A DNA stretch of 64,000 nucleotides from Torpedo marmorata. Lineage: Eukaryota. A program made the position numbers and the translations under genes. This document shows, piece after piece, positions 2,100-62,239 of this stretch. Positions within the stretch are counted from its first letter, which is position 1. Each line of letters opens with the position of its first letter. Location: contig OZ360222.1 in NCBI GenBank assembly GCA_977017645.1, positions 208,320,001-208,384,000 on the forward strand. Reading direction: 5' to 3'. The notes under the pieces were generated by a model, which had not been told where the DNA came from, made no database searches, and saw only the letters and a list, made by a program, of their open reading frames with translations.

Positions 2100-2838
2100 T
2101 TAAAACCCCTTGAATTTTCCATCACCCACTTCTTAAATGTCTGTGAAAATTCATGGAGTGAAAGTTGCTTGTTTGGCCCTTGTGCTTTTTGGCTTTAGTT
2201 TCACAAGAATTCAGGTTCTTCCAATGCTAATCATATCAAAAAGGGGCACAGCCTCAGTGTCTGCAGGGTGAACAAATATACACATTGTAATTATTGTTTC
2301 AAATGTACTTGACTCTTCTCCTTGGGCCTGAATGGTCTGATGCAACTTCATCTAAAACACCATGTGGCGTGGCAAATAGTTTGCTGTCTGTAAGATTCTG
2401 GTAATCCTGAACAATCACAGCCAAGAACATTCAGTATAGGAAGCAGTGTTAATAAATAAAAATATATACATCAAGATAATGTTGACCACAGAGTGAGGAT
2501 AATGCTGTAACAGGAGATTAGAGAAGGGCTGGAAGGAAGGACTCATTACTCCCCAGCTGTCATTGAGACTGCCTGTGTAATTCTCTGCCAGAACAAAAAG
2601 GAGAATGCAGACGAGAAGGAAATAGAACACTATGGTAACTTATTAATCCGGTTTATGTTAGGGAGTCCCTCAGGATCTTGTATTTAGTTAATGTCAAGGC
2701 ATAATGTGTCATGCTATAGGCTAGCCTCTACTTTACCATGATCTATTTGTGAGTTTAAATAGTCCTGTGTTATTAAATTATTTGGGGGAAGGTGACAGAA
2801 CCAATACTGGTCCCACTTGCACCTGTAATTCTCACTAG

Positions 2839-3085
2839 TAAAAGGTAAAAGTTCCATTATTGTCACGCAATACTACATTTAGAATGTAACATACATGAAA
2901 TTCTTTCATTTTTGTCTACTGTAAGGCAGACAAAGAGTCGCTTCTTTGTCCAGGGCCCCTCTCAGAAACCTACAGCACCTGGTGTTCCTTGGCAGTCTCC
3001 CCTCCAAGTACTGACCAGTCCTGTGCCTGCTTAGCTTCGGAGATCAGACAATCCCAGTCATATTCAGGCTATTGGTGCTGTTAGG
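2839..3085 (-). mobile_element. 5S rRNA-derived SINE (5S head 2966..3085, LINE-like tail 2839..2965)
   Basis: The reverse complement of 2966..3085 aligns by eye to vertebrate 5S rRNA (TCTGATCTCCGAAGCTAAGCAGG...AGTACTTGGAGGGGAGACTGCC...CAGGTGCTGTAGGTTT). It is followed by a tail ending GTGACAATAATGGAACTTTTACCTTTT that is homologous to 50020-50074/51185-51258. Confidence 0.8.
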
Positions 3086-3739
3086 TTTGAGGGATTGCAG
3101 ATTTTAGTTCACTGGTTAAAATATATTAAAGGCATGTCAATGTGTGAAATAAACAGGCAGAGGATTTCAATATAGCAGCAGACACAGTTTTACAGGAGTA
3201 TGTTAAATAGCGAACACACTGGCACTTATCTGAACTAAAGGCAACAAGAGATGGAGGCAGCATTCTCTCCTGCTGAACCAGAAATCTATTCTAAATTATA
3301 ACAGCTCAACCATGGCATAACGTGGGATCAATGGCTCAACAGTGAGGACGAGTTGGACCTGAGAGCTTTGGAGTTGTTCTACAACAGTGAAACAAACCTT
3401 CTGTTGCACCCTCTCTCCCACGACCATTCCTTCAGAATCTTTCCCCTCTCATTCCCTCTAGTTTTAGACTCACCGACCCTGGGAAAAATACCATAACTGT
3501 TTACCTTATCTATTGCCCTCATGATTTTATAAACCACTGACAGTGCTTCATTTAGTCTCCAACGCTCCAGAGAGATAGATATAGGAGTGCAAAGTTGTTT
3601 CTGATCTTGGATCGTGTGGCTGATTCTGCCTTATCCCTGCATCAAATACACACGGTTACCCACTTTAGGAATGGCAAGGGGCTAGCATTGCCCTCGGGCT
3701 GAGGTGAGTGGCTCTGGGCTGCTCTGGAACAAGAGCAGC

Positions 3740-9890: not shown

Positions 9891-10253
9891 ATTAGAGTTC
9901 CTGGTGGAATCAGGCTGAGAAAGGGTGACTGATTGTGATACTGATGAGAAACGGAAAAAGACAGAGGATCAGATGAAAAAGACTGAAATGCAGAAGAAAG
10001 AAAAGAAAGAGGGGCAGAGTAGGGACGCATTTTGAGGTGGAGAGCTTGTGCATTGTCCGCTGTTTGTCAAGGGAGTATGTGTCACATAGCTGCGTTTCTC
10101 TCTTTCAGTCCCTTGCACTAATCTAAATGCCAGAACACAGACTTTAGCAATGTGGTGATGTTATTGAGACTGCTTTGAGTAATTCCATATGACGTGAAGA
10201 TATTCCCAGGTAGAATTTAACAAACAATCTGGGTCCACTCAAAACCTGGAGCC

Positions 10254-10994
10254 GATGAGGAAATTTAGGTTCTTGGGAGTCACCATCTCGGAGGATCTTT
10301 CCTGGACCCAACACACCAATGGCATCGTGAAGAAAGCACGTCAGCGCCTCTACTTCCTCAGGAGTTTGCGGAGGTTTGGTATGACATCTGAAACCCTGGC
10401 AAATTTCTACAGAGGTGTGATGAAAAGTGTGCTGACCAGCTGCATCACGGTCTGGTATGGTAACACCAATACCCCTGAGCGTAAAGCCCTCCAAAAGGTA
10501 GTGGGCACAGCCCAGGACATTACAGGTAAAACCCTCCCCACTATTGAGTACATCTACAGGGAACGCTGCCGTCGGAGGCCAGCAGCAATCATCAAAGACC
10601 CACACCACCCAGCACACGCTCTGTTCTCGCTGCTGACATCAGGAAAGAGGTATATAGGTGCCACAAGACTCGCACCACCAGGTTCAGGAACAGCTGCTAC
10701 CCCTCTACCATCAGAATCCTCAACGACAAAGTCAATCAGAATTCATTTAAGGACTCTTATGTGCACTTCATTGATTTTCTTTGCTCTCCCTGTATTGCAC
10801 AGTCAGTTTGTTTACATTTGTTATCTATTTACAGTTCTTTTGATTGTTTACATGTTTACGCTGTGTACAGTTTATTTATTTTTTTGCACTACCAATAAGT
10901 GGTAATTCTGCCGCGCCAGCAGGAAAAAGGAATCTCAGGGTTGTATGTGATGTCATGTATGTACTCTGACAATAAATCTGAAATCTGAATCTGA
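10254..10994 (+). mobile_element. Rex1/Babar LINE, 5'-truncated
   Basis: KFRFLGVTISEDLSWTQHTNGIVKKARQRLYFLRSLRRFGM...IIKDPHHPAHALFSLL. Tail GACAATAAATCTGAAATCTGAATCTGA. Confidence 0.9.
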
Positions 10995-13840: not shown

Positions 13841-14022
13841 AGGGCAGCATTGTTAGCATAGTGCTTAGCACAACACTATTACAGTGCCAGTGTCCCGGGT
13901 TTGAATCTGGCACTGTCTGTAAGGAGTTAGTACATTCTCCCCATGTCTGCGTGGGTTTTCCCCAGGTGCTCCGGTTTCCTCCCACCCTCCAAAACGTAAG
14001 GGGTTGTAAGTTAATTTGGGTG
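13841..14022 (+). mobile_element. tRNA-derived V-domain SINE, 3' part replaced by a Tx1 fragment
   Basis: A-box-like TAGCATAGTG, B-box GGTTTGAATCT, V-domain TTCTCCCCATGTCTGCGTGGGTTTTCCCCAGGTGCTCCGGTTTCCTCCCAC. Confidence 0.88.
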
Positions 14023-14417
14023 AAATCTGGTCTGCACGAATCCTGTTGGTTTTTCAGCACATGGAGATGTCAGTGAGGGAATGCTGCCACCTGGCACATT
14101 CCAGGCTGCAGGAGTACGTGCTGAGGGACGCACTGAGGCTTGGTGCAGCCAATACATGGGCGCTGTGGGGAAGGACCACAGTCTAGGGTTCTCCCATTAT
14201 CAGGCATTGAGGGGCTGAGACCGAGGGGAAGTCCCTCAAATAACAGAGGGGAGAAGCAACAAGGTGCCACAGTGGTGGAAATGGTGGAAATGGAATCGAA
14301 TGTAACAAGGCACCGTGACTGGAATGTATAGATATGAAAGTAAGGGTGGTAACAGACTCTGAACGGTTTTCCTTTTGTAAATAATTGATTGTGAATAAAG
14401 TCTATTTTTGGAAAAAT
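14023..14417 (+). mobile_element. Tx1/L1-clade LINE 3' end
   Basis: Translates as WSARILLVFQHMEMSVRECCHLAHSRLQEYVLRDALRLGAANTWALWGRTTV*. The 3' UTR ends AATAAAGTCTATTTTTGGAAAAA. Confidence 0.65.
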
Positions 14418-15037: not shown

Positions 15038-15728
15038 AGAATCAGAATCAGAATTTATTGTCATGAACAAGTCATGAAATTCGGTGTTTTGCGGCAGCAT
15101 CATAGTGCAATTAACATTCATATTAACCATCTAACAACATTACTATACAAAATTATAAACAATAGTGCACGAAAAGTAAGGTAGTGTCTTTGGTTCATTG
15201 GTTATTCAGGAATCTGATGGCAGCGGGGAAGAAGCTGTCCTTGTGCCGTTGAGTGCTCGTCTTTAGGCTCCTGTACCTTTTCCCCGATGGAAGCAGAGTG
15301 AAGAGGGCATGGCCTGGGTGGTGGGGGTCCTTGAGGATAGAGGCTGCTTTTTTAAGACACCGCCTCATGTAGATGTCCTCGATGGAGTGAAGTTTGGTGC
15401 CTGTGATGTCACAGGCCGAGTTAACAACCTTCTGGAGTTTACTCTTGTCCTGGGAGTTGGCGCCGCCATACCAGGCAGTGATGCAACCAGCCAGAATGCT
15501 CTCCACGGTACACCTGTAGAAGTTTACAAGAGTCTTTGGTGACATACCGAATCTCCGCAAACACCTCACAAAGTATAGCCGCTGACGAGCCTTCTTTGTG
15601 ATTGCATCCACGTGGATGCTCCAGGACAGATCCTCGGAGATGTTGACACCCAGGAATTTGAAGTTCTTGACCCTCTCCACTACTGAGCCCTCGATGAGGA
15701 CTGGGTCGTGTTCCCCTGACTTCCTCCG
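15038..15728 (-). mobile_element. Rex1/Babar LINE, young subfamily copy 1
   Basis: ORF 15195..15752: [20 protein letters not shown]...RQRLYFVRCLRRFG...SFFPAAIRFLN. The (TTCTGA)n tail appears as AGAATCAGAATCAGAA. Near-identical to 53150-54277 and 63340-64000. Confidence 0.92.
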
Positions 15729-16239
15729 GAGAGGGATGAAGGTTTGTGACAATTTTCATATCCGCTTTCTCTGCATGGACCATCCGAATATCGCCTAAAC
15801 TTCACCCAAAAAGAATAAATCACAATCTGAGGAAGAGTGAATGAACTCCAACTCTCTCTATCTCCTTAGATTTTCTCATATCACCACATTATGAAATATT
15901 TCACCAGGACTGAAACCCAATGCCTGTGTATTGCATTTTTAATACTTTCGTCTTCCTTGCAATGTAGTGCAATCTGCAAATTTCTTTGGGATTTGGTGTA
16001 CAGACCCCCTCTGGGGTGCAGTATGAAGAAAGAATGTGCTGAAAGAGCAAAGGCTATGAAGGGAATATTTTAAAGACATCTTCTATTGGACAAGTATGAT
16101 ACAATGACGTTGGCACCGTGATGAAAAAAATACACTTCAAGGTCAGAGGAAGGACCAATGGAGATACAAAATAATGGCAATAACCAACGTGGGGGTTAAC
16201 TCCATGCTCTTTGTTCTGCTCACACTCTATTCTTTAGCG

Positions 16240-22000: not shown

Positions 22001-22330
22001 GAAAGCTGTACTGAGATTTTTGAACAAAACTCAATAAAGACTGTTCAGCAAACATTGAGCTTCTCAAAGAGAAATGGAACATCATTCTTGCAGTTGTAAT
22101 TCACTAAACTCTGCTCCCCCTCGTGATAACCTGTTTGATTGGCTTGATGAAGCATTGGAAGCTTTCTTGCGTGAATTCAGAGGAGCAAACTGGAAAATGA
22201 AGGAGCACACATGGATTGCTCACACTCATCCTCATATACTGTAAGTACTTGCCGCACTTGACACAGAACATCGTATGCTGATGACTATGCACAACACCAA
22301 GGGGTTCAGGCAATTCTGCATGACTGAAAG

Positions 22331-22577
22331 TTGGCGTAGCGGTTAGCGCAACGCCTTTACAGCACCAGCAATCGGGACCAGGGTTCGAATCCCACGCTGT
22401 CTGTAAGGAGTTTGTATGTTCTCCCTGTGTCTCCGTGGGTTTTCCCTGGGGGCTCCAGTTTCCTCCTACCGTTCAAAACGTACCGAGGGTGTAGGTTAAT
22501 TGGGTGTAAATTGGGTGGCATGGACTCATGGGCCGAAATGGCCTGTTACCGTGCTGTATGTCTAAATTTAAAATTCT
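22331..22577 (+). mobile_element. tRNA-derived V-domain SINE, near full length
   Basis: TGGCGTAGCGG A-box, GGTTCGAATCC B-box, V-domain, and a CR1-like 3' end GGGCCGAAATGGCCTGTTACCGTGCTGTATGTCTAAATTTAAA. Confidence 0.9.
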
Positions 22578-22744
22578 AAAATTATTGTCATACACACGAG
22601 TACAATATACAGAGGCAATGACAGTCGTTCTTGCAGCAGCCACACAAGTACATGATAGTGAGTTTATTATCTTAAACATTGTACAATGTACATTATTGAG
22701 GGACACCTCCCGATATCTCCTGATCTTCAGTGCAAGTTTACATC

Positions 22745-23545
22745 AAACATTTCGCTGATACGTAGGCTCTGCCAGTGTTTTCATTACCTTTCCATTACGT
22801 TATCTTACCTTTCTCTCTGAGATTCCCTGGTGCATTCTTCACTCCCAACCCACCCTTCCACCCATTTAGGCACTTCTCGCTATAATCGCAAAAGTGCAAA
22901 ACCTGTCCCTACATCTCCTCCCTCACCTCCACCCAGGGCCACAAACAGACCTTCTGGGTGATGCAGATCTTTACATGCACGTTTTTCAACCTAATCTAAT
23001 GCATTCGGTGTACTTTGCTCTGCTTGTAGGTCTAAACTTAAACTTCCTGCAGCCAACTATTTTAACACCCCCAACCATTCCTACAATGACATTTCTGTTC
23101 TTGGCCTTATCCATTGTCAGGAGGGACCAAATGTAAACTTGAAGAACAGCCTGGTCAGTCTGAAACCTACTGGGATGAAAGTTGATCTTTCAAATTTTAC
23201 GTAACCTGCACCCCCCATCTGATTTTACTGTTTCCATTTCTTCTTTACCTACTCTTGTACATTTATTTCCCCTCTCCTAACTTCTTTTCCCCCTTCGTTC
23301 CTTGTGGTCTCTCCCTCTAACTGCCTCTCCACCTCACACCTTCTGTCCTATCACCTCTGTGCCCCTCCCTGAGCTTCTTTCCCCCTACATATACGTAATA
23401 TCTCCCCAGTCTCACTAGTCTTGATAAAGGGTCCAGACCCGAAACTGTGACTGACCATTTCTACCCATGGATGCTGTCAGATCTGCTGAGCTCCTCCATC
23501 AACTGTTTGTCTGCTCAAGATTCCAGTGTTGGCAGCTTTTGTGCT
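22745..23545 (+). mobile_element. Decayed Penelope-like element (GIY-YIG remnant plus pLTR)
   Basis: Similar to the 7372-7800 copy (CAGGGCCACAAACAGACCTTC...TTTACATGCAC...AAACTTGAAGAACAGC). Hammerhead-like CTTGATAAAGGGTCCAGACCCGAAAC at about 23420-23445. Confidence 0.75.
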
Positions 23546-26908: not shown

Positions 26909-29433
26909 AAAAACACAATGCTGGAGAAGCTCAGCAGGTCAAACAGTGTACGTCATATACACTTTTTCATTTTGTTCGGGCGCCTGCTCACATTTTGCTC
27001 ATACCTTTTTTTTTTCTTTTTTTTTTTTATAATTTTATTTAACTTTTAAAATCACAAAATACATAAATCAAAAATAGTATATCATTCAAAATACATGTGA
27101 TATATTACCTCCCCCCCTCCCACCCTCCCCTCCCCAACCCTCCCACACTATTCTAATAAAAAAAAGGAAAGAGAAAAAAAAAAGAGGTATTAGTTAAAAA
27201 GAAGAAAAAAAAAGAATAGAATTGAATATTAAAGATTTAAGAGTTAGAATGAGGAGAAAACAATTACAAGCTAACTCTACTTATATATTGGAGGTTACAT
27301 TTGTCAGCGGTACCAACTTTTAGAGAATTAATTCATACCCATAATTCTCATATATGGGCTCCAAATTTTCAAAAAGAAATGATATTTATCTCGTAAATTA
27401 TATGTAATTTTTTCCAATGGTATACAAGAACGTAATTCTGCATGTAGTCTATCTAAATTCAAATCTAAATCTGATTTCCAAGTAATAGCAATACATTTTT
27501 TTGAAATCGCTAACACAATTCGTAAAAATTCTATTTGATACATATTCAATCTATTTCTAATACTAATTTTTTTAATATCTCCAAATAAAAATACCATAGG
27601 ATCCATTGGAATCGTAATATTAAAAATTCTATCTAAAAAATCCTTAACTTTAGACCAAAAATTTTGAATTTTTAAACATGACCATGTACAGTGTACAAAA
27701 GAACCTATTTCATCTTTACACCTAAAACACATATCTGATAATGCCGGATTAAATTTCTTTAATTTTTTAGGTGTTATATATAATTGATGAAAAAAATTAT
27801 ATTGTACTAATCTATATCTAACATTAATAATTTTAGTCATACTCAATTTACATAATTCTTTCCAATGTTGTTCATCTATACTAATATTTAAATCTGACTC
27901 CCAATTTAATCTAGATTTATGTAATCCTACTTTAGGCATCTTTCTCTGAAGTAGTTTATACATTTGTGATATAAATTTATTAAAATTTCCATTAGTAATT
28001 AGTAACTCTAATCCATCTTGTCTAGGAGATATTAATTGATTCCCCAATTTCTCAACTAAAAATCCTTTAACCTGATAATAAGCCAAAATCGTATTATCCA
28101 TTATTCCAAATTTTTCTTTCAACCTAGAAAAAGTAACAAATCTTCCCACCTCAAAGCAATCTTTGATCTTCTTAATTCCTTTTTGATACCATAATTTTAA
28201 AAATTGGTTATCAATAGAAAAAGGTAACAATAAATTCTGATATAATGGCATATTTAAAGATATTGATCCTTTTCGTCCTATCTCATTATCTATCTGAGTC
28301 CAAATTTCCAATAAATGTTTAATAATCGGTGATTTTTTCTTTTTAATTAATAATAATTTAGAATTCCATTTATAAATAATATCTTCCTTATATCTTTCCC
28401 CTATATTACTCAATTCTATATTAATCCAAGCAGTATTTTTAGTTGTCAAAAAATTCATTAATAAATTTTAATTGTGCTGCCTTATAGTAATATTGAAAAT
28501 TGGGAAGCTGTAATCCACCCATTTCGTATTCCCAAGTTAATTTATCTATACTTACCCTTGCTAATTTTCCTTTCCATAAAAACTTTCTAACAATGATTTT
28601 TAAATCTTTGAAAAATTTTTGAGGAATACCAAAAGGTATAGATTGAAAAAGATATTGAACTCTTGGAAAAATATTCATTTTAATACAATTCACTCTTCCC
28701 ATTAGAGTTATAGGTAAATCTTTCCAATTTTCCAAATCTTTCTTTATTTTCTGAAATAAAGGTATATAATTTAATTTATATAAATTTTCCAATTTTGTAT
28801 CTACTTTAACTCCCAAATATTTAATTGCTTCTTTAGCCCATTTAAATTTTGTAACTTCTTTACATTTAGTATAGTCTCCTTGAGATAAAGCCATTATCTC
28901 ACTCTTATCCGAGTTTATTTTATATCCAGATATCTCACCATACTCCCTCAATATCTTATCTAATTGTTGAAGCGATTCAATAGATTTCGTCATATATATT
29001 AATACATCATCTGCAAACAAACTAATTTTATGTTCTTCTGTACCTACTTTAATCCCATTTATATTAGTATCTTTCCTAATCATTTCAGCCAACGGTTCTA
29101 TTGCCAATACAAACAAAGCAGGTGACAAAGGACATCCTTGTCTTGTTGATCGTGTCAAGGAAAATTTAGATGATATTTGACCATTTGTAATTACTCTAGC
29201 TGTAGGTTCCTTATATATAGTCTTAATCCAATTTATAAAAATATTTCCAAATCCATATTTCTCTAAAACCTTAATTTTTTTGCTCATACCTTGATGAAGG
29301 GTTCAAGCCTGAAACGTTGGTTATGTATCTTTATCTTTACTATATAAAGTACACTGTTTGACCTGCTGAGTTTCCCCAGCATTGTGTTTTTGCTTCAATC
29401 ACGGGGTCTGCAGACTTTCGGTTTTACTTTATG
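26909..29433 (+). mobile_element. Short Penelope pLTR insertion (inverted 5' piece plus forward pLTR) hosting an L1
   Basis: Outer TSD TTACTCGTAGC (26898-26908, 29434-29444). 26909-26950 is the inverse of about 29349-29392. Hammerhead-like TTGATGAAGGGTTCAAGCCTGAAACGTTGGTT at 29291-29322. Confidence 0.8.
27008..29277 (-). mobile_element. 5'-truncated L1-clade LINE (ORF2 RT C-half and Cys-rich domain, one frameshift near 28450)
   Basis: TRQGCPLSPALF...ISLFADDVLIY...IKYLGV in 28439..29287 and CFRCKDEIGSFVHCTWSC in 27328..28458. Poly(A) and AATAAA at the left end. 15-bp TSD TTTTGCTCATACCTT (26993-27007, 29278-29292). Confidence 0.95.
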
Positions 29434-29610: not shown

Positions 29611-30469
29611 CCGTATATACATGTGTAGTAGTCGATACCGTGTAAAAGTCAATCCCCTATTTTTGGCCCTGGCTGCCCGCCCATCCGAGCTCCCGACGCC
29701 CCTATCGCCCACCCATCCAAGTTCCTGATGCCCCGACCGTCCACCCATCCAAGTTCCTGATGCCCCGACCGTCCACCCATCCAAGTTCCTGATGCCCCGA
29801 CCGTCCACCCATCCAAGTTCCTGATGCCCCGACCGTCCACCCATCCGAGTTCCCGATGCCCCGACCGTCCACCCATCCAAGTTCCCGATGCCCCGACCGT
29901 CCACCCATCTGAGTTCCTGATGCCCCGACCGTCCACCCATCCAAGTTCCTGATGCCCCAACCGTCCACCCATCCAAGTTCCCGATGCCCCGACCGTCCAC
30001 CCATCCAAGTTCCCGATGCCCCGACCGTCCACCCATCCAAGTTCCCGATGCCCCGACCGTCCACCCATCCAAGTTCCCGATGCCCCGACCGTCCACCCAT
30101 CCAAGTTCCCGATGCCCCGACCGTCCACCCATCCGAGTTCCCGATGCCCCGACCGTCCACCCATCCAAGTTCCCGATGCCCCGACCGTCCACCCATCCAA
30201 GCTCCTGACGCCCCGACAGTGGACTCTTGCCTAGGCCCCGGCCGCCCGCCCATTCAAGCTCCCGAAGCCCCAGCTTCCCACCCATCCAAACTCCCGACGC
30301 CCCGACCGCAGACTCTCACCCCGGCCACCTGCCCATCCATGCACCCGACGCCCCAAACGACGCAAGTACCTACTGCGGTCAATAGTAGTATGCATGTAAT
30401 AGTCAACCCCCCTAAACTTTACCCTAAAAATTGGTCCACAAAATTAGACTATTACACGCATATAGACGG
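29611..30469. mobile_element. Non-autonomous Tc1/mariner (pogo/Tigger-like) element carrying a minisatellite
   Basis: TIRs CCGTATATACATGTGTAGTAGTC / GACTATTACACGCATATAGACGG, with a TA TSD at 29609-29610 and 30470-30471. Confidence 0.88.
29675..30360. repeat. 32-bp minisatellite (about 16 homogeneous units plus degenerate flanking units)
   Basis: Unit CCGTCCACCCATCCAAGTTCC(C/T)GATGCCCCGA runs head-to-tail over about 29706-30215 and decays outward. Confidence 0.95.
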
Positions 30470-33670: not shown

Positions 33671-34250
33671 AGTATCTGATTGAACCAAAGTACACCTCTG
33701 TACTAATAGGTGTACAGCTTTCAACATTGTGGGTTATCTTTAATTAGAATCAGCCACCCACAAATTTGGACTCCTGTTGGTGCAATAGCTTGGGTAAAAG
33801 TAGATGGAAGCTGAAAACATTACAATGAATAGGGAAAATAAAACCACTGTACGCCTGAGTTGTAGTCAACAGTTGGGGGAGTTAGCCACGCATTATGATT
33901 AAAATAAGCATTTTCCAGGATGATCGAATTTAGCCCCCAGTGTCAGCAGGTAGCAGATCGGAGAAGACATCACAGTGAAACTCAATCCTATCGTCACAGA
34001 AATTTGTACTGCAGAACAAATACTGGCTGCAATCTCTCCTTCCTAGCCCAGGGATAGTCAAGGTCTGCGTATCCAGTTTTCCTGTTTATCCAACTTTACA
34101 TCTGCCAATCTGTCAGTCTGCATTAGATGTTTGCACTGTTTCATGCCTGGCCAGACAATGCAGCTATATTTCTCAAATAGCAGAAGCAGTTCATCATTGA
34201 TATTGCAGAACTCAAATGAATATTTATTCAATTAAGGTAGATAATAATAA

Positions 34251-34410
34251 AGTGGTTCTCAACCTTTTTTTTCCATTCACATACTGCCTTAAGTAACCCC
34301 TTACTAACCACAGAGCACCTATAGCGTCCTATCCCAAAGGTGCTCTGTGGTTAGTAAGGGATTACTTAAGGTGGTATGTGAGTGGAAAAAAAAAGATCGA
34401 TAACAACTGG
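34251..34410. mobile_element. Palindromic hAT (Charlie-like) MITE, solo module
   Basis: AGTGGTTCTCAACCTTTTTTTTCCATTCACATACTGCCTTAAGTAACCCCTTACTAACCACAGAGCACCT is mirrored by the right half. Homologous to the modules at 58200-58573. Confidence 0.8.
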
Positions 34411-38084: not shown

Positions 38085-38290
38085 CCACATTCTAACAATA
38101 CATACACACAAGGGATAAGTAACAGCGTCCAATTAACCTACCAATCTATACGTGTGTGGGAGGTAACCAGAGCTCTTGGAGGAAACCCATGCAGCCATGG
38201 GGAGAACTTATATATATCACACATCAGCACCCAAGGTCAGGATGTAACCTGGGTCTTTAACACTGTGAGGCAATGTGCACCACTGTGTCC
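38085..38290 (-). mobile_element. V-domain SINE, diverged (its 3' part probably at 37435-37535)
   Basis: GTGGGAGGTAACCAGAGCTCTTGGAGGAAACCCATGCAGCCATGGGGAGAAC is an antisense V-domain. Confidence 0.7.
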
Positions 38291-40227: not shown

Positions 40228-40462
40228 GCCCATAGTTAGCATAGTGCCAGCAACCTGGGTTCGAATCCGGCACTGTTGGTAAGGAGCTTATACGTACTCC
40301 CCGTGTCTGTGTGGGATTCCTCCGGGTGCTCCGGTTTCCTCCCACCCTTCAAAACATAAAGGGGGTTGTAGGTTAATTGGGTATATTTGGGTGGCACGGG
40401 CTTGTTGGCCAGAAGGGCCTGTTACCATGCTGTACGTCTAAATTTAAATTTTTAAAATTTAA
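40228..40462 (+). mobile_element. tRNA-derived V-domain SINE
   Basis: GGGTTCGAATCC B-box, V-domain, and TCTAAATTTAAATTT tail. Confidence 0.88.
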
Positions 40463-42306: not shown

Positions 42307-42531
42307 NNNNNNNNNNNNNNNNNNNNNNNNNNNNNNNNNNNNNNNNNNNNNNNNNNNNNNNNNNNNNNNNNNNNNNNNNNNNNNNNNNNNNNNNNNNNNN
42401 NNNNNNNNNNNNNNNNNNNNNNNNNNNNNNNNNNNNNNNNNNNNNNNNNNNNNNNNNNNNNNNNNNNNNNNNNNNNNNNNNNNNNNNNNNNNNNNNNNNN
42501 NNNNNNNNNNNNNNNNNNNNNNNNNNNNNNN
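42307..42531. other. Assembly gap (225 N)
   Basis: Run of n preceded by a (CA)n-like repeat. Confidence 1.
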
Positions 42532-43179: not shown

Positions 43180-43945
43180 GATGCTTGAAGTGTGAGATGT
43201 AGGCAGGAAGTGACACTAATTTATTGTGACTTTTTCTGTGCAATAACACACATGGGCAGATTTTACATCACCCTCTCCTGACAGGCCTGGAATTTCCACT
43301 CCCTTTCATAAGAATTGTTGCTCAGCTAATTGTGAATCTTGTTTTTTTTACTGTGAGGTGGATAAAGTGACTCCTAATTATCTACTTTTGTAGCTCCAGG
43401 TCACAGCGACGCCCATTTTCACCCATCGTCTAAGCCAGTTCTCTGAGAAATCCTATTCTTCCTGATACTATTTTCTTTCACATGCCTTTTAAGACCCCAA
43501 TGATGCTTGAAGAGTGGGGAGTAGGCAGGAAATGAATCTAGTTTATTGTGACTTTTTCTGTGACATCACACTCATGGACAGATTCCAGACTAACCCTCTC
43601 CCGACAGAGCTGGAATTTCCACTCATTTTCATTGGAAATTTTGCACATCTAACTGCGAAACTTGTTTTTCACCGTGAAATGGGACAGAGCAGTTAGTGCC
43701 AGCAACCTGGGTTTGTATCCGCCACTGTCTGTAAGGAGTTTGTACATTCCCCCCGTGAACTGCGTGGGTTTTGTCTGGGTGCTCCGGTTTCCTCCCACCC
43801 ACCAAATACATACGTGGTGTAATTGGACAGCATGGGTTTCATGGGCTGGAAGAGCTGTCGATTATGCTGTAGCATTAAAATTAAAATAAAAAATGTGGAA
43901 AAAGTGACATTTAATTATCTGCCTTTACAGCTTCAGGACACAATA
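43180..43945 (+). repeat. Diverged tandem duplication of a unique module of about 230 bp (43180-43405; 43502-43679 plus 43893-43942), second copy split by a SINE
   Basis: Shared blocks GATGCTTGAAG, TAGGCAGGAA, TTTATTGTGACTTTTTCTGTG, ACCCTCTCC, CTGGAATTTCCACTC, AAAGTGAC and TAATTATCT. Confidence 0.85.
43680..43892 (+). mobile_element. tRNA-derived V-domain SINE
   Basis: CTGTCTGTAAGGAGTTTGTACATTCCCCCGTGAACTGCGTGGGTT...GCTCCGGTTTCCTCCCAC, with an A/T-rich tail. Confidence 0.85.
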
Positions 43946-44361: not shown

Positions 44362-44805
44362 TAAAGGAAAGCCCTGATAATCCAGCATGCTTGGGACACT
44401 GGTGAGGCCGAACCTGCAGATTTTCTGGATTATTCCCATTAATATCCCAACATCTTTAAAAAAAAAAAAATCACTTTTTTAGACGATACACAGGATTATA
44501 ATACCTTTTTACAGTGAACCTGCTTAGTTTAAAGAGGTTGGGGGAACAGACCCCAGAGAGTTAAATGGGTAGGTCAGGGACAGTGTGTAGAAAGGAGTGT
44601 GAGAGCATTGGCTCTGGCCAGTGGAACCGGGGCCCCGGTGAGTCAGAAGGGAGCATGGGAAGCTGGGCCTTAGCAAGTGAGAGAGGAGTGTGGAAATTGG
44701 GGTCCCAGTGGGTTGGAAGAGAGCGCAGCATATCTTACCTGTTGAGCCGGATGTTGAACCATCAGGATTTCCAAATGATTGGATGCTGATTATTGAGGAT
44801 TACTG
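44362..44805. mobile_element. Tigger/pogo-like non-autonomous element, decayed
   Basis: The left end AAAGCCCTGATAATCCAGCA and right end TGCTGATTATTGAGGATTACTG form imperfect TIRs. Confidence 0.5.
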
Positions 44806-45723
44806 ATTTTAAAATGAACACTCTTAGCAGGTTGTATGCATGATTAAAACTATGGGATCCCTTTTTGTACCAAACTTATTTTTCTTGTAGGAATCACACC
44901 AGTTATACGTAATGTCATAAAACGATGAACTAATTCTGTTAAGGTACATTCTTTGGAGTTCGTCACAATTGAAATGCATTTTAAATTCTGGCCATAATCC
45001 CCCTTCAGGTAACGAAACAGAGGTTATGAAACAGTCTCACACAACTTAAATTTCAGGAGAAACAGCATGATTCAGCTTGGTTTGGTATCGTGGTTTAGGT
45101 CTGCCTTCTGCGAGTGATTTATTTTAACTAAAAGTTATTTTATATGTAAATCTCATTCATTCAAAATCCTTTTTTTTATTGGTTCAAATTGTATATATGA
45201 GTATTTCATCACAAATGCCACGAACAGCAAAGCCATTGGCTGCTTGAATTCCCTATAGATGTGAAAATTGGGCCTGGTTAAATGAAAATTAAAAAAAATA
45301 CAATTGAACTTTACTTGTATTGTGACAATATAATCGTCATTTGGAATCTGATATCAACAGGAGATGTTTCTGGAGATGTGGAAGAATCCCACAATGGCCT
45401 GAGGTAAATTGCAATGTCTCTGCTCTTTGGATACTCATCGTCCATACTAGGATCCAGTTTTGTTTTGTACACTAATAATTGCTTTCCTGCCAAGATTGTA
45501 CAAAAATTAATATTCTGTTGCTGTTCTGAGTCTGTCATTGGAAATCACCCAAAGAGGACTAAGAAATTCTTCTGAAAGCGCAAAGGTTCATTTCGGTGAA
45601 GACTTTGGAAAATGTTGGCCTTTGTTTTTGTTTACTCTCTGTCCAGTTCCAATTGTTTCTCCCCGAATGAGATAAATCCTGAAGGTTCAGAATATAATCA
45701 GTTTCGGAAACACTCAGCTGGTC

Positions 45724-45972
45724 AAATTTTAAATTTAAATTTAGACATACAGCACGGTAACAGGCCCTTTTGGCCCTCGAGCCCGTGCCACCCAATTCCA
45801 CACAATTGACCTACAGCCCTGGTACATTTTGAATGGTGGGAGGAAACTGGAGCACCTGGAGGAAACCCACGGGGAGAACGTACAAACCCCTTACAGACAG
45901 CACCGGATTTGAATCTCGGTCGCTGGCGCTGTAACAGTGTGCACAAAATGCTATGCTAACTGTGCCACCCCA
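45724..45972 (-). mobile_element. tRNA-derived V-domain SINE
   Basis: Reverse complement of the family at 22331-22577 (AAATTTAAATTTAGACATACAGCACGGTAACAGGCC...). Confidence 0.9.
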
Positions 45973-47645: not shown

Positions 47646-49519
47646 GATTGGCCTAAGGAAACTAATAGGCCTAAGGAAATTAGGCATTTATAATAGGCCT
47701 AAGGAAAATAAAATACTAGGGCCTAGAAGTTCTATTGTACACTACTACAAGCAGACTTCCATGCCTTTGACATGCTTCTGTAATAATGCTGCAATCTCTA
47801 CACAAATGCCCAATTGCAAAATGTCTCACCCAGCGCTCAAGAGTAAATCTGACCCATTAATAGAAGCTGCTGTTCACATCAGGAAATGTCTGTCACCTTA
47901 AGATCTCCTACCATAGTGACAGTTAGCCCTACTCAAGTGACTTTGTGACCAACACTGATCTCATGGCTGATTTTGTGCATGAGGCTTTGGATTTGTGATG
48001 TGCAACCAGTTGCACATCATGGATGTTAAAACATCTCCCCCCCCCCCACCACTGTCTCATCCACAGCACTCCTTTAAACTGAGGAATTTCTTGGACCAGC
48101 TGGAAAAATTAGTAACTTGGAATCTGAATTGTTAATAGTTGGGCTAAAATCAGCAGTGCTCTATCATATGTTTATGTGCTTGCATGAAATTCCTCTGGAC
48201 ATGGTAATAACAAAGATATTAACGATCATTATAAAATTGTCATATTTGTATACTAAAATCAATGTGTAATTCCACACCAAGTCTCTTTTTTTTTAAATGG
48301 GTCAGTATATTTACTTTGAGAAGCTACTAGGAAGATTTAAGCATATCGTCAGAGTAAAGTGTGGATCAGTCTCAGCCCCATCTCCAGACCTAACTTGATT
48401 TTAGGTTTTCCAAACCATGCATGCAAAATACAATTCATTACAAAAAAAGTTCTACGAAGTCTTTAAAGATACTGCACTGCAAAGCATCAGAAAAATTAAG
48501 ACCAGAGAAATTAGCAGCCATTTTATTTTCTAAGTATTGTCAAAAAAGTACTTTGATGGAACTTTCAGTTTTTATAATACCTTGTAAATATTTCATGAGG
48601 ACTCAAGCTTGTGTAAAGAGATGTAAATTTATTTGATGATTTTTAAAAAAAAACAGAAATTGAAATAAACTGTGTCAGCCAATGGAGAGAGTTGCAGCTT
48701 TGATTAACATTGACAACAAGTCATAACCAACCGAATAATTCCCAACCATCAAGCCCATTCTGAGGAAGCAACCAACAATACATAACAATTAATTATCTAA
48801 ACATGATAAACCCAGTGAAATACATAACTGTTCATCCAGAGTCAAACTGGGTGAAGATGGTAGATTTCCTTCCCAAAGGACATGAGTGATCCAGGTAAGT
48901 CTTTGCAACAATTCTTTCGTTTCCTGATCAGTGTTTGAGCTTTGTTTTTAGATCCTAGATGTTTTATAGTTGCTCAAATTTAACAGCTGCTGTGATTGGT
49001 TTGGAACGCCGTTAATTTAGCGGCACATCTCTCGGCAGTAACTTATTCCTTAAAGCTTTAGAGAAACACAGAGCTGCAGATGCTGGAGTCATGAGCAAAC
49101 AAAGTGGGTCAGCGAGCTCCCATTGGGTAGAAATGGTCAGTCAATGTTTCAGCTTGGGACTCCTTATCAAGGCTAAGATAAAAAAGGTAAAATTACATGT
49201 ATAAAGGGGGGAAGGTGGTGAAACAGGGGTCCAGAGGTTGATAAGGTATAGGACAGAAGGTGTGAGAGGTGGGGAAATAGGTAGAGGGAGAAACCATTGG
49301 GGGTGGGGGAAGTTAGAGAGGGAAAAAAAAAAGTGTCGAAGTAGTAAAGAAGAGATTGAAACAGTGGAATCAGAGTAGGATGGGGGAATACCTGAAATAA
49401 GAAAAATCACAGTTCTTGCTATTTAGGCTTGAGGCTGCCAAGGAGGAATATGAAGTGTTGTTCCTCAAGTTTATGTTTGACCTCATCCTGACAATGGCCA
49501 AGGCCAAGAACAGAAATAT

Positions 49520-49729
49520 GAGGTTTGCATCTGGAGCTCAGGTTGCTGATGGTTTAGACTGAAGGCTGTGGGAGCACTGGAGGCGAATACATGGACACTC
49601 AGTGACTCAGGGGACACTCTCTTTTGCTTCTCTTTCTCTGACTGTGAGGGGCGCCGGACAATTTCTCCCTTTTCTGCCTTTCGGTAGACTAAAGGAAATT
49701 TTGTGTAATATTACCTTTTCTGTTTTATT
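49520..49729 (+). mobile_element. SINE/LINE-tail element sharing its 3' end with the 5S SINE
   Basis: CTCTCTTTTGCTTCTCTTTCTC...GAGGGGCGCCGGACAA...TGCCTTTCGGTAGAC, homologous to 49996-50074. Confidence 0.6.
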
Positions 49730-49867
49730 ACAGAAATTAGTTCATCATTTTATGACATTACGTATAACTGGTGTGATTCCTACAAGAAAAATAAGTTTGG
49801 TACAAAAAGGGATCCCATAGTTTTAATCATGCATACAACCTGCTAAGAGTGTTCATTTTAAAATCAG
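49730..49867 (-). repeat. Inverted near-perfect copy of 44803-44939
   Basis: The reverse complement matches 44803-44939 with one substitution and one 1-nt indel. Confidence 0.95.
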
Positions 49868-49995
49868 AAATTTGAAACATCATTGTAGGAATGGTTGTGG
49901 GAGTTAAAATAGTTGGCGACAGGAAGTTCATATCTGGAGTTGCAAACAGGGTGTTCGGTGAAGCGGTCACACAATCTGCATTTGTTCTTACCCAT

Positions 49996-51258
49996 GCTCT
50001 CTTTTGCTTCTCTTTCTCCTAACGTTAGGGGTGCCAGGAAATGCTCATGGGTGACTCTTTGTTTGCCTTACGGCCAGTGCCGGATTAACGTAGTAGCAAA
50101 AGTAGCATATGTTATGGGCCCCGCATTTTCAAGGGCCCCGCGCTAAATACTTGCTCTATTACTATAGTACTATAGTACTGCACTTGCTCTATTACTATAG
50201 TACTATACTGCCTTCAACTTTTATGAATGACTGGGTGTTTAAGGTTAGTGATTTTAGCCAATTATCACCTTTAATCGGGGTTATTAACAAAGTAATTAAT
50301 GGGAGTGTGGTATCTATGTGATACATATACGATGCATAAATACGAAGGTATTTGAAACTAAAAGTCATAGCCGCTGCACAAAGTTGAAAATGAAAATGGA
50401 AACACGCCTTAGCTGAACAGTGAAAACACGCCTCAGGCCTTCAGTCAGCTGGCTGGTTTGTTAACATGTCGGGGAGCTACATGCTGCAGATAGCAATGAG
50501 CAGTAGAGCCGGAGATATTGGATGTCATTATGCTTCTGGAAGTGCAAAACGTAAAGCGAAGGAAGAAAAAGAAAGAAGAGACCAACTTGTGATATCAAAA
50601 ACACGCAAGTTGACAGAATATTTTGATGTTCATGGTTATGGTGCTATAACGGCTGAAGATGGAAATATAGGAACAACTAGTACTAGTGCGTAAGAAGGCA
50701 TACAACAACAGCCAGCATCCATTGTTTCGAAGCAGCTAAAAATTACGCAATCCCCTAAGGGAAAACAATTTATCCGCCTGCTGCCTGATAAACTTAAAGC
50801 GCAGCGCACCTCCTCACTCCGCCATTCTGAAAAAAAAAAATAATAGCATGCGGTTTGTTACGCTGCAGTGTTTAGAATAGACCACGGCAGACCTTCTCCG
50901 AGTCGCCAGAAAACCGGAGGACCTATGTCCTCAAGTCACCCACGTAAGTTTTTTTATCCATTCATAAAATGTGCGAGGCTGCATTTGCAATGATTTATCA
51001 CTTTGAGTTCATCTCTCTCCTCTTAATTTAGCTTCCTCTGGCATTTGGTGTCCTACTTGCCCCTTTCGTTCTCTCTTTTAAACTACTAGATGTTTTAATA
51101 TTTATGTGTATTTTTAAAATTTAGGGCCCCTTTATAACATAGGCTACAGGCCCCGCACTAGCTTAATCCGACCCTTCTTACGGCAGACAAAAGTTAAAGT
51201 GTATCATGTATGTTACATTTTTAACGTGACAATAAAAGGAACCTTGGACCTTGAACCA
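49996..51258 (+). mobile_element. SINE/LINE-tail element split by a hAT transposon (49996-50074 plus 51185-51258)
   Basis: Removing the hAT gives GTGACTCTTTGTTTGCCTTACGGCAGACAAAAG...CATGTATGTTACATT...GTGACAATAAAAGGAACCTTGGACCTTGAACC. Confidence 0.75.
50075..51176 (+). mobile_element. hAT (Tip100-like) internal-deletion derivative, 1102 bp, with a transposase N-terminal remnant (50466..50693)
   Basis: 8-bp TSD CTTACGGC (50067-50074, 51177-51184). TIRs CAGTGCCGGATTAA / TTAATCCGACCCTT (11 of 14). Subterminal GGGCCCC motifs. ORF SGSAKRKAKEEKE...KLTEYF is typical of Tip100-type transposase N-termini. Confidence 0.88.
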
Positions 51259-51899
51259 TGCAGAGGAGGCCACTCTGAGCTGAAAGCTTCAGTCTTTTGG
51301 TCTAAATTAAAGATATTGGAGGTGATTGAAATGCTGTTTGGCCCACTGATGCTTTTTAATGGTTGTGGTTCGTGCTTGTCCCAACCTTTTATGGGAATGG
51401 TCAACGAGAACTTTGAATTGAGGTTATTTATTCTATTCCCCAGATTACCCATGGCTGGGTAAAATGATCACGGTTCTACAGACTCTGTTTTACCTGATAA
51501 TAACAGACTGTTTCCATATCACCCCATTCCAAATTCCCTTTAAGACATTGGATTTGAAGGCATCTTGAAATTAAAAACAGGCGATGCTGGAAATACTTGG
51601 AAGGTCAGGCAACATCTATGGAGACAGAATGAATGTATCAGCTCATTGACCTATCGTTGAACTGGGAAAAGTTAGAAACGAAAGAGGTTTACAGTTGCAG
51701 ATAAAAATGGGAGAGTCAGAAATACCAAAAACAATGGGAGACCTGCGGAGAGTGAGTGTCACGAACAGTGCTGGCTGAAAAAGGGTGAAAAGAGTAGAAG
51801 ATATCAAAAGATGCATATGGGAGGGGCTCTAAATAATTGTGCATGAATCTGAAATTTGAGCCATTGAATTTCAGCTGAGATTCATGTGGAATAAATTAG

Positions 51900-54510
51900 A
51901 GCAAGGTACAATTCACAAAAGAAAGAGATGTGCTGCATGGATGTCAGTTCTCCTCAAAAACATTAAAAGCAGGAAGGGAAACAGAAAGCAATGAAGGTGA
52001 TCAAAGTAAAAGGAATAAATGAAATCCCATCAGAGAGAGAAGCAGAACTTCAGATTTGTGAGCGTTATTGGAAGAAAGATGACAATGAATTCAATGATAA
52101 TCCAAAAGGAAAAAAAAAACAGCCTTGATATGATACATTCCCATGAGGAAGAAGGGTTGGGAAATTAAAGCCAAAGTTTGCCTGATGTCGGAAACAATAC
52201 AGAGTAAGATGGAGAAGGAAAAGAGAGCCTGTGGCAAATGCCAAATTGTTAACTTCAGTGAGAACCAGGCTGATTGTACAAAGTCCAAGGTGGATGTAAA
52301 CTGGATGGAGGCAATGACTGAGAAAAGGCTGGCAGCAAATGTAAAAGCAGGTCCAATATTGTTCCACATGCATGTAAACAGGAAAGGTTGGACCAATCAA
52401 AGGCCATAAAGGAAATTTGCTCCTGGAATCAGTAGACATTCTTGCGGTAGTCAATGATGACTTTACATCAGTTTTCATCAAGGAAGAAGATATCTTCTCA
52501 GCAAAGGAAGATGCAGTTGAGATTTCGGATGAGCTAAATATTCTGATGAAGAGGACAGAGAAAGGCTAATTGCACTTAAAGCAGATAAATCATCTGGTCC
52601 AGATAAGATGCATCTTGGGTTGCCCAAGGAAATAAGGGAGGAAATTGCACGAACTATTAATAATTGTCTAGCAATTTATGGATTCAGGGGTGGTGCCTGA
52701 GCATTGGAAAATTGCAATTGTTTCACGCTTGTTAAAGGAACAGGTGCAGAGCAGTAAGTTTAACCTGGTGTTGGAAAACCAATAATCAGGAACAGAATTA
52801 TCATTTGGTCAAGTGTGGATAGATTGAAGAAAACCAGTTCAAGGCAAATTGTTCAGCTAACGAATTTTTGAATAAAGTAACATAGTTAACGTGATGCAAA
52901 ATGAGTTAAAAGCAGAGGAGGTGCCACAAAGAATTACAAGAATGATTCTGAAGATGAGGAACTTGGATTATCTGCAGAAATGGGGACGAAGAGGTGGCTA
53001 GAGGATATGCTACAGATATGTAAAGTCCTGAAGGTTATAGACCAACTAGATAGAGAAACTCATCCCATTATTGGTAAGGTCTCAATGTAGAGGATGTGGG
53101 ATGAAGGTGATTTGGTGGAAGAACCAAATTTAGCACAAAAAGCAATTCATACATACGGCTGCTCTTCATTGACTACAGCTCGGCCTTCAATACCATTATT
53201 CCCTCAGTGCTGGTCAAGAAGCTACAAACTCTAGGCCTCTGTACCCAACTCTGCAACTGGATCCTTGACTTTCTCATCAGAAGACCACAGTCAGTACGAA
53301 TTGGAAACAACATCTCCTCCTCACTGATTATCAACACAAGCGCACCCCAAGGATGCGTGCTTAGCCCACTGCTCTACTCGTTATACACCCATGAATGTGT
53401 GGCCAGGTACAATTCCAATACCATCTACAAGTTTGCCGATGACACCACAGTTGTCGGCAGAATCACAAACAGCAATGAGGAAGCGTACAGGAGGGAGATA
53501 GATCAGCTCATTGAATGGTGTAATGACAACAAACTTGCGCTCACACGTCAGCAAAACCAAGGAGATGATTGTGGACTTCAGGAGGAAGTCAGGGGAACAC
53601 GACCCAGTCCTCATCGAGGGCTCAGTAGTGGAGAGGGTCAAGAACTTCAAATTCCTGGGTGTCAACATCTCCGAGGATCTGTCTTGGAGCCTCCACGTTG
53701 ATGAAATCGCAAAGAAGTATCACCAGCGGCTATACTTTGTGAGGTGTCTGAGGAGAGTCGATATGTCACCAAAGACTCTCGTAAACTTCTACAGGTGTAC
53801 CGTGGAGAGCATTCTGGCTGGTTGCATCACTGCCTGGTATGGAGGCGCCAACTCTCAGGACAAGAGTAAACTCCAGAGGGTTGTTCACTCGGCCTGTGAC
53901 ATCACAGGCACCAGACTTCACTCCATCGAGGACATCTCCATGAGGCGGTGTCTTAAAAAAGCAGCCTCTATCCTCAAAGACCCCCACCACCCAGGCCATG
54001 CCCTCTTCACACAGCTACCATCGGGAAAAAGGTACAGGAGCCTAAAGACGAGCACTCAACGGCACAAGGACAGCTTCTTCCCCGCTGCCATCAGATTCCT
54101 GAATAATCAATGAACCAAAGACACTGCCTTACTTTTCGTGCACTATTATTTATATATATATATTTTTATAGTAACGTCGTAAGATGGTTATAATATGAAT
54201 GTTTGCACTATGATGCTGCCGCAAAATACAGAATTTCATGACTTGTTCATGACAATAAATTATGATTCTGATTCTGAAAAAAATTCTGCAGTATTTTGGG
54301 GTCTGGAATTCTCTGCTGGGGAAGTGGAGGCTTCTTAAATTATTATGATTAAAGGGTTTTGGTTGTGTCTGAAAGGCAAGTATTTGTAGTGCTCTGAGAA
54401 GAGGACAAAAGAGTGCTCCTGGGTGGATTGCTCTTGCACAAAGACAGTTGAAGCTTGATGGGCCAAATGATCCCATCCCACATTGTAACCATTCTGTGAT
54501 CCTATGTTTC
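51900..54510 (+). mobile_element. Heavily decayed CR1 ORF2, interrupted by a Rex1/Babar copy
   Basis: EKRLAANVK..P..F..HVNRK; GATAAATCATCTGGTCCAGATAAGATGCATC (DKSSGPDKMH); WKIAIVSRL; 3' end at about 54280-54510. Confidence 0.75.
53150..54277 (+). mobile_element. Rex1/Babar LINE, young subfamily copy 2 (RT domain; frameshift near 53542)
   Basis: [40 protein letters not shown], then [12 protein letters not shown]...SFFPAAIRFLN. Tail GACAATAAATTATGATTCTGATTCTGA. Confidence 0.93.
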
Positions 54511-57004: not shown

Positions 57005-57225
57005 TTTATTTTTATTTTAACGACACAGCATGATAGAAGGCCCCTCCGGCCCATGAAACATATTTCACCCAATTACACCCAATTAACCTAACAATCTCGT
57101 AGGTTTTGGAGAGTGGGGGGAAACCGGAGCACCTGGAGAAAACCCACTCAGAACACGGGGAGAACATACAAACTCGTTACAGACAGCGGTGGATTCGAAC
57201 CCGATCGCTGGCGCTGTAATAGTGT
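57005..57225 (-). mobile_element. tRNA-derived V-domain SINE
   Basis: GGAAACCGGAGCACCTGGAGAAAACCCAC...GGGGAGAACATACAAACTC...GGATTCGAACCC. Confidence 0.85.
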
Positions 57226-58199
57226 GTGCCAAGGTTTGCAGAGAAGGGGTTGTGGTCTTGATGAGTGTGAAGGAAGTAAAAGACTGAATGGTTTTCTAAA
57301 GATTGGAAATGAACCAGCATTTACCTTGCTGCACTCAGAACTATTTCATCTGCTTGATTGCTTCAGCATGACTTACAAGCCTCATGTGATTTTTACAGAG
57401 GGATTTTTTCCTAATTCCATTGGGTATCACAACCATAAAGTATGAAATAAAAATAAAGTAGAATGTTAGCTGTTAAATTTTAAAGAGCATCATAAATTTA
57501 TATCTGGTTCAATGAACAATGTTTAATCATGAAGAAAAATGAGAGAAGTCTAACTGTTTGGACCTTATTAGGCTGAGGTTGTTAATATTAATTTACGTAC
57601 ATCACTGGCCTTTCAAAGAAGCATTGTACCAAAAGTAATACGCAATAGTAAAAGCCTACCAGTTGGAAGATATTTCTGTTATTGGAGGAAATGGTCATTA
57701 TCCATATAGTGCTCTCCATTTGCAGGATGATGATTGGTAAAACAGTTTTAAATTAAATGTTTGAATTTTGTATTTATTTCTGCTATATATTGTCAATTCC
57801 AAAGAGTTCCTACGGCATCACCCAGCATTCTGTGAACATTCCACTTCAGACTCTTGTTAAAAGTCAGACAGATATCTCATTGCTTTATGATCGAAACTTG
57901 CCATTCATGTAACCCTTGCTCACACCTATATATTGTGCAGAATTAAATGGAAACTGAAGCAAACGAACAGGTTATTCAGCCCATTTGGTTTTGGTTAGTG
58001 TTTAAACTTGATTGGTCTTGCTCCCTTGTATTTACGTCTTCTCATCCTGCCCCATTCTGTGCATTTTCACCATTATGGTTATGGGGAGAGGCCTGGCAGT
58101 GGGGCTGAGTGGGAAAATAGATCCGCTCATGATTAAATGGTGGGGTAGACTCGATGGGCTGAATGGCCTATTTCTGCTACTCTGTCTTATGGTCTAATA

Positions 58200-62226: not shown

Positions 62227-62239
62227 ATGCATTCTTTTG

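Follow-up and report, generated by a model that had tools for sequence, protein, structure and literature searches.

We found that a repeat on the minus strand of the 64-kb stretch of DNA analyzed here (the window) joins a 5S rRNA-derived head to a LINE-type 3′ end, a fusion that is supported by the evidence below. Membership in a SINE family, whichever LINE drove it, is in our judgment probable; on the narrower reading, in which the repeat is an old, dead copy of a ~250-nt bodiless 5S SINE (SINE3 type) moved by a Rex1/Babar-type LINE, we are evenly divided. The initial annotation had proposed a 5S SINE at this site: the fusion of 5S to a LINE end stood, with a SINE as its likeliest reading, but the 5S-tail junction occurred once in the 64 kb. 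The features are located in Table 1.

Table 1. Positions in the window of the 5S-headed element, its flanks, the related tail-family copies, and the LINE ends used for comparison
Feature	Position	Strand	Remarks
5S rRNA-derived head	2966..3086	-	Full length (+1 to +120), one inserted base, decayed; ~76% identity to elasmobranch 5S
Box A, type 1 Pol III promoter	3022..3036 (+50-64)	-	1/15 changed; 3′ half elasmobranch-type; by eye
Intermediate element (IE)	3014..3019	-	1/6 changed; by eye
Box C	2989..3006 (+80-97)	-	4/18 changed; by eye
5′ arm	3074..3088	-	Reverse complement of the same element's 3′ arm (2966-2979); 14/14 plus one extra base
LINE 3′ UTR-like tail	2856..2965	-	Starts at the base after 5S +120; two stem-loops, then GACAATAAT
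Tail stem-loop 1	~2933-2912	-	Predicted fold
Tail stem-loop 2	~2898-2863	-	Predicted fold
Terminal 7-nt repeats	2838..2855	-	Hold the element's first TTTT runs (2850, 2843)
Possible decayed target-site duplication, 5′ copy (weak)	3095..3120	-	Score 20 against 2817-2843
Possible decayed target-site duplication, 3′ copy (weak)	2817..2843	-	Pairs with 3095-3120
Tail-family copy without 5S	49518..49729	+	~125 nt extra upstream, 3′ end lost; sits inside an older repeat
Tail-family copy, left piece, 5′-truncated	49998..50074	+	Behind 6-bp duplication 49992-49997
Tail-family copy, right piece	51177..51255	+	GACAATAAA, 7-nt repeats, second 6-bp duplication 51256-51261
Nested hAT-like DNA transposon fragment	50075..51176	.	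~1.1 kb, 8-bp duplication, 11/14 terminal inverted repeat; outside the tail family
RT-type LINE 3′ fragment (PF09004)	15038..15755	-	Comparison end: hairpin, GACAATAAA, 6-nt repeats
RT-type LINE fragment (RVT_1 + PF09004)	53111..54275	+	Comparison end
Second LINE family 3′ fragment (PF09004)	10198..10993	+	Comparison end; related shorter copy ends near 9755

A full-length, diverged 5S head had been described for the element, and the Rfam search confirmed it: model RF00001 matched 2967-3085 on the minus strand over model positions 1-120 (40.3 bits, E value = 7.1e-05), only 2 bits above the gathering score of 38, and the alignment carried 16 non-standard marks, equal to 8 broken pairs. There was no second 5S match in the 64-kb window at either the Rfam gathering or a permissive threshold, and no tRNA gene was found in the window. 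Differences were counted by eye against the sequences and primers of PMC3123226, with stingray class II 5S (supplement 1) as the reference for +44..+120 and two primers designed on dogfish and Taeniura 5S as the reference for +1..+43. From +44 to +120 the head differed at 11 of 77 positions (14%) without any indel, and from +1 to +43 it differed at 17 of 41 positions and had one inserted base, which makes 28 differences over 118 positions; all 7 reference CpG sites were changed, again by eye. Divergence was thus higher 5′ of the promoter (17/41 versus 11/77, Fisher test, P value = 0.0014). This excess is attributable to CpG decay and two block events, since leaving out the CpG sites, the rewritten 5′ arm, and one 4-nt block reduced the comparison to 3/17 versus 8/71 (P value = 0.44).

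The promoter boxes, with box A taken as +50-64 and box C as +80-97, were kept no better than their surroundings (6/39 versus 5/38 positions changed, P value = 1.0). Box A had been called intact and box C near-intact; the former has 1 of 15 positions changed, and the latter, with 4 of 18 changed, is less intact than claimed. The box A end is of elasmobranch type. Heads more diverged upstream of the promoter are reported for SINE3 families (PMC10886601), and the 5′-weighted divergence of this head matches that pattern until the CpG sites and blocks are removed, when the match is gone. We conclude that the head is a dead 5S copy and no working gene.

The 5′ end of the head carries a further feature, absent from the earlier description, in that its 5′ arm repeats the 3′ arm of the same element in inverted orientation. 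Relative to the elasmobranch primer, each of the six substitutions in +1..+12 yields a base complementary to the 3′ arm; with a one-in-three chance for each, six out of six has a probability of ~0.0014, although a primer served as the reference here and may not represent the host 5S exactly. Three of the six fall outside the natural helix I. The fold of the whole element beat 200 of 200 shuffles (z = -3.05), partly because the 5′ arm is an inverted copy of the 3′ arm. There is a weak possible extension of the arm pairing to 3093, into the start of the tail and across a 4-nt gap, of which the non-5S part was not significant (170/2000). A second block, a 4-nt change at +32..+35, reads by eye as a local inversion. 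This block and the 5′ arm are candidates for head changes that the copies of a family would have in common and the cellular gene would lack. Such block changes could derive from cDNA fold-back at insertion, from conversion in the source gene, or from later quasi-palindrome repair.

Downstream, the tail is joined to the 5S without a spacer and measures ~128 nt overall, for a whole element of ~250 nt. The initial annotation had described a tail of ~125 nt in common with repeats at 49520-49729 and 49996-51258, and the alignments bore this out. The tail (2965-2842) matched 51177-51252 in 62 of 74 aligned columns (local score = 76), 49642-49717 in 57 of 75 columns (local score = 55), and 50021-50071 in 31 of 45 columns (local score = 34), and in each case 0 of 1,000 dinucleotide shuffles reached the score. 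A tail profile detected no further copies in the window beyond its 4 source pieces. Of the 49996-51258 element, the tail homology held but its continuity did not: it is a repeat of ~155 nt (49998-51255 once the nested insert is removed), which begins ~25 nt above the junction point and is interrupted by a 1.1-kb insert (50075-51176). Its 6-bp duplication and its truncation at the 5′ end are what LINE copies typically show. All three tail-family copies form stem-loop 1 despite differing letters. The insert, labeled hAT-like from the length of its duplication, lies within the loop of the first tail hairpin and has an internal palindromic repeat at 50157-50207.

That the sequence upstream of the partner copies is not 5S was also correct, as no Rfam 5S match lay there; neither 5S nor tRNA was found upstream of them, and the upstream part of 49518-49729 gave no small-RNA match and no coding remnant. 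In both partners a TTTT run lies immediately upstream of the junction point (49622 and 50002), and TTTT recurs inside the shared part of the tail. On the sense strand of the 5S element there is no TTTT before the terminal repeats, which is consistent with read-through and no proof of it, because 26% of random 237-nt stretches lack TTTT by chance. Given their 5′ truncation, the lack of a small-RNA match, and the TTTT above the junction, the partners look like 5′-truncated LINE 3′ UTR pieces and not like SINEs with other heads. The swap of heads with another family that had been put forward is not supported, as the partner copies show no small-RNA head; it is simpler to suppose that a LINE end captured a 5S head.

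The surroundings of the partner at 49518-49729 are themselves layered. An older repeat (49124-49517 and 49874-49928, homologous to 23041-23467) is split by the tail-family copy and a 142-bp insert, which gives a nested order of insertions. The 142 bp (49730-49871) stand where the partner loses its 3′ end and are an inverted copy (97.9%) of 44799-44939, 5 kb upstream; the join shares ACAGAA, and the segment looks like a recent templated repair insertion.

We then compared the tail with the 3′ ends of four LINE fragments from two PF09004-bearing families, with a direct domain match at three of the four ends. The young family of the window (15038-15730, 53421-54275, and 63340-64000; copies 93-97% identical, with RVT_1 and PF09004 matches) we take to be of Rex1/Babar type; no literature linking PF09004 to Rex1 was found. 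The protein at 53502-54110 had its top identities, over partial lengths, with proteins of named batoids (76% in Narcine bancroftii, 70% in Pristis pectinata, and 62% in Rhinoraja longicauda), and the best E values belonged to teleost proteins at 53-57% identity. Together with the elasmobranch-type box A end of the 5S head, these identities suggest a ray host. All four LINE ends finish in a hairpin, GACAATAAA, and 6-nt repeats, and the 5S element has the same design with a 7-nt repeat. The word GACAATAA occurs 9 times in the window against 3.4 expected, and 7 of the 9 occurrences appear to mark retroelement ends, each followed by a 6-7-nt repeat. A hairpin closing at TGA before CAATAA was the minimum-energy fold at the 5S element and at 4/4 RT-LINE ends. 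No single site was significant when this hairpin was tested (5S element, 13/200; LINE ends, 11-27/200); the partner at 51228 gave 121/200, and an unrelated site at 26394 did as well, with 17/200, as the 5S element and the LINE ends.

Linear alignment told less. The scores of the tail against the four LINE 3′ ends were reached by 646, 37, 43, and 22 of 1,000 shuffles, none of them significant after allowing for four comparisons, and the clearly non-significant one (646/1000) was with the copy at 15038, which bears the word GAATTTCATG quoted in the initial annotation. Because the two LINE families were only about as alike to each other at their ends (11/1000 shuffles), the tail could reasonably stem from a third family in their clade. 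The window yielded no autonomous LINE that carries this tail, and the LINE families present there are not its direct source; as judged from sequence, the tail's likeness to LINEs is architectural only. Hence the claim that the 3′ end resembles those of the window's Rex1/Babar LINEs holds for the terminal motif, the hairpin, and the short repeats and is weak in linear alignment (22-646/1000). Mobilization by Rex1/Babar likewise has the shared terminal motif and hairpin in its favor, and the missing alignment to an identified partner LINE against it. A stem-loop is described as the usual mark of stringent LINE and SINE 3′ ends (PMC3472496), and the hairpin and 6-7-nt repeat ends fit the description of Rex1 as having a conserved 3′ UTR and oligonucleotide repeats (PMC6274825). 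Rex-Babar has been reported in the whale shark (PMC8455134). Another hairpin-GACAATAA-short-repeat end, of different sequence, lies at 22572-22650 on the minus strand, tail to tail with a member of the commonest SINE-like family (22330-22583).

The window as a whole is 41% GC and rich in repeats, with fragments of several non-LTR retrotransposon types. One short repeat family has eight copies of 70-83% identity (13842-14026, 22330-22583, 38129-38210, 40242-40460, 43694-43890, 45724-45970, 57005-57233, and 62239-62459) and is presumably HE1/V-SINE-like. Palindromic MITE-like repeats at 34228-34409 and 58195-58577 also gave sub-threshold miRNA-precursor matches. A tandem array with a 64-nt period (29665-30308) adjoins an L1/Tx1-like ORF2 fragment (27328-29302), and a 225-nt run of N (42307-42531), an assembly gap, is preceded by a CA-repeat.

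We also asked whether head and tail had arrived together. The search for target-site duplications gave a weak candidate of ~27 bp (3095-3120 and 2817-2843) that encloses both and ends where the extension of the inverted arm begins; its score of 20, picked after inspection, was equaled in 123/5000, 184/5000, and 247/4966 control pairs, so that 2.5-5% of controls were as good. No duplication was seen flanking the tail alone, and target duplications sought at the RT-LINE copies were not resolved there. The exactness of the junction and the lack of a duplication around the tail alone make it likely that head and tail arrived in a single insertion.

Set beside the SINEBase definition (PMC3531059), which describes short (<1 kb), interspersed, non-tandem repeats, the element is ~250 nt long and is the single 5S match in 64 kb. 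Where the definition asks for at least 60% identity to 5S rRNA over at least 60 nt, the head has 66/77 at +44..+120 and ~90/118 overall; as the body or tail required beyond the RNA gene, it has a 128-nt tail homologous to other repeats. Translations of two junction-spanning frames were compared with protein sets, and one search returned 0 candidates and another 7 candidates, 0 of them significant. A third returned 23 hits, of which 19 had their best stretch beginning at residues 19-27 (5S part only), 1 at residue 15, and 3 at residues 8-9, reaching into the tail part; we give these hits no weight. A scan of GTDB for the junction motif gave 9 loci, all rejected (9/9) as chance matches of 12-20 nt in GC-rich bacterial DNA. 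Among the papers listed by our literature searches, which covered articles and not the repeat databases (Dfam, Repbase, and the SINEBase table), none describes a 5S SINE from a shark or a ray.

Other accounts of the element have to be weighed against a SINE moved by a Rex1/Babar-type LINE. It might be a one-off or very low-copy chimeric retrocopy, made when a LINE enzyme switched once to cellular 5S rRNA and gave a product that never spread. The single junction in the window fits this account, as does the head, which at +44..+120 is only 14% off stingray 5S, evenly over boxes and spacers, and so compatible with neutral decay. An inverted 5′ arm can arise in one insertion, and 5S/LINE chimeras are documented, making up 10.5% of 253 human candidates (10.1101/2025.02.02.635956). 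Such events would, however, be rare per window: in an assumed 3-Gb genome, 30 one-off copies amount to 0.0006 per 64-kb window, against 0.06 for 3000 copies, and we infer that a large family is favored over a one-off because a random window is likelier to hold a member of a large family. The human chimeras also tend to be truncated and antisense (10.1101/2025.02.02.635956), whereas the head is here full length and sense; a weaker point is that the captured tail is just the stem-loop region, free of TTTT as a Pol III read-through unit needs. We consider a one-off chimera unlikely. A multicopy 5S SINE whose tail came from another LINE clade (e.g., RTE) or a non-autonomous derivative, and which was moved by it, seems to us improbable as well. 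In its favor are that the tail has no significant alignment to the LINE families of the window (four comparisons allowed for), that the partner's upstream part has no coding remnant, and that known 5S heads are often found on RTE-derived parts (PMC5786205), but the hairpin-GACAATAA-short-repeat end is common to two distinct PF09004-bearing LINE families of the window.

Two further accounts do without a fused element. Head and tail could be chance neighbors, a 5′-truncated LINE end having inserted later into the 3′ T run of a dispersed 5S pseudogene; a lone truncated tail-family copy of similar length does exist (49998-51255), and the duplication around the whole element is weak. Against this, the tail begins exactly at the base after +120, no duplication surrounds the tail by itself, and the 5′ inverted arm may reach into tail sequence (not significant alone), and we rate such a coincidence very unlikely. 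We find it barely credible that the head is a solitary 5S rRNA gene that still functions and has a repeat next to its 3′ end: it is full length and above the Rfam gathering score, but only by 2 bits and with 8 model pairs broken, it has 28/118 changes including all 7 reference CpG sites, and it is followed by no TTTT terminator after +120 and has no tandem neighbor.

If the element is a SINE moved by a Rex1/Babar-type LINE, it would have originated by a template switch, in which a LINE reverse transcriptase at work on the 3′ end of the LINE RNA moved to a 5S rRNA, thereby joining 5S (+1..+120) to the last ~128 nt of the LINE 3′ UTR. Box A, IE, and box C form a type 1 internal promoter, which is TFIIIA dependent and used by Pol III; in the proposed life cycle it would drive a Pol III transcript that continues past the 5S end, where only three T are left, as far as the distal T runs. 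The ORF2 protein of a Rex1/Babar-type LINE would bind both stem-loops of the tail together with the short repeats and would insert the copy by target-primed reverse transcription. As for the 5′ arm, its sequence was probably templated by the 3′ arm, either through fold-back of the cDNA during insertion or at an earlier stage in the source gene. The exact junction, the full-length sense 5S, the tail cut to the stem-loop region, and the read-through-compatible sequence are features of the letters that are consistent with a SINE.

Unless it is already in a repeat database, the element is probably a further example of an established general type. A bolder proposal, which we advance tentatively and with some doubt, is that it represents an undescribed batoid SINE family made of a whole 5S and a Rex1/Babar 3′ UTR with no body, of independent origin from ray 5S, in which Rex1/Babar moves a 5S SINE in trans; the rewritten 5′ arm would then either mark the family, lengthening helix I, or be the trace of a fold-back that recurs with that enzyme. 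SINEs derived from 5S account for 2.3% of the first SINEBase release (PMC10946416), and a ray 5S SINE, if true, would add an independent origin in a group whose SINEs, as far as PMC3747384 and PMC5499810 describe them, are tRNA-headed. Were the driver Rex1/Babar, it would be one of few SINE partners for that clade, and a recognition signal of ~128 nt with two hairpins would be defined and testable by retrotransposition assay. Such a SINE would also inflate the number of 5S genes annotated in rays, since this copy scores above the Rfam threshold. The general model would be unchanged, since it is already accepted that template switching has given rise to SINE3 elements repeatedly (PMC5786205, PMC7245038, PMC4824008); 5S heads have come to lie on LINE ends more than once (PMC5786205, PMC7245038).

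As far as its sequence indicates, the element works like SINE3-type elements. SINE3-1 of zebrafish and AmnSINE1 likewise have a 5S-derived head with a Pol III type 1 promoter. RSg-1 is presumably a Rex1-like LINE; our literature search returned nothing on it. The salmonid DeuSINE OS-SINE1 resembles the element in combining, in fish, a 5S promoter head with a LINE-derived tail, in its case from RSg-1 (PMC3747384, PMC3472496); it differs in having a central Deu domain, whereas our element passes from 5S +120 directly into the tail, and the elasmobranch-type 5S of the head makes an origin independent of OS-SINE1 likely. SINE3-1 and AmnSINE1 differ in having a Deu domain and a tail of the CR1-4_DR type (PMC3747384), and the tail gave no match to CR1-like fragments in the window. 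Because tail homology starts at 2965, next to 5S +120, there is no central body; with no room for a Deu domain, a DeuSINE (SINE3-1, AmnSINE1, or OS-SINE1; PMC3747384, PMC3472496, PMC4824008) is excluded.

Ped-1, CoeSINE5, and HaSE3 also place a 5S head on a LINE-derived 3′ part (PMC5786205), but they are RTE-based and often bipartite, while the end described here resembles those of PF09004-bearing LINEs. In CoeSINE4/5 and HaSE1/3, one tail is described under both tRNA and 5S heads (PMC5786205); no tRNA-headed sister of our element was found in the window, and the supplement of PMC5786205 has no occurrence of Rex1, SINE3, or RSg. A SINE-Rex1 pairing has likewise been proposed for SINE2-5_NV and Rex1-24_NV of the sea anemone (PMC3747384, PMC3472496), in which the SINE differs by its tRNA head and shares ~23 nt with Rex1-24_NV in the published alignment (PMC3472496). 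The human 5S/LINE-1 chimeras similarly carry 5S 5′ of a LINE 3′ end from one insertion (10.1101/2025.02.02.635956), though typically as a truncated antisense 5S on L1, in contrast to the full-length sense 5S on a non-L1 end seen here. The chondrichthyan SINEs HE1, SacSINE1, and SINE2-1_CM come from the same host group as the element and differ from it in their tRNA heads and in their HER1/CR1 or L2 tails (PMC3747384, PMC5499810).
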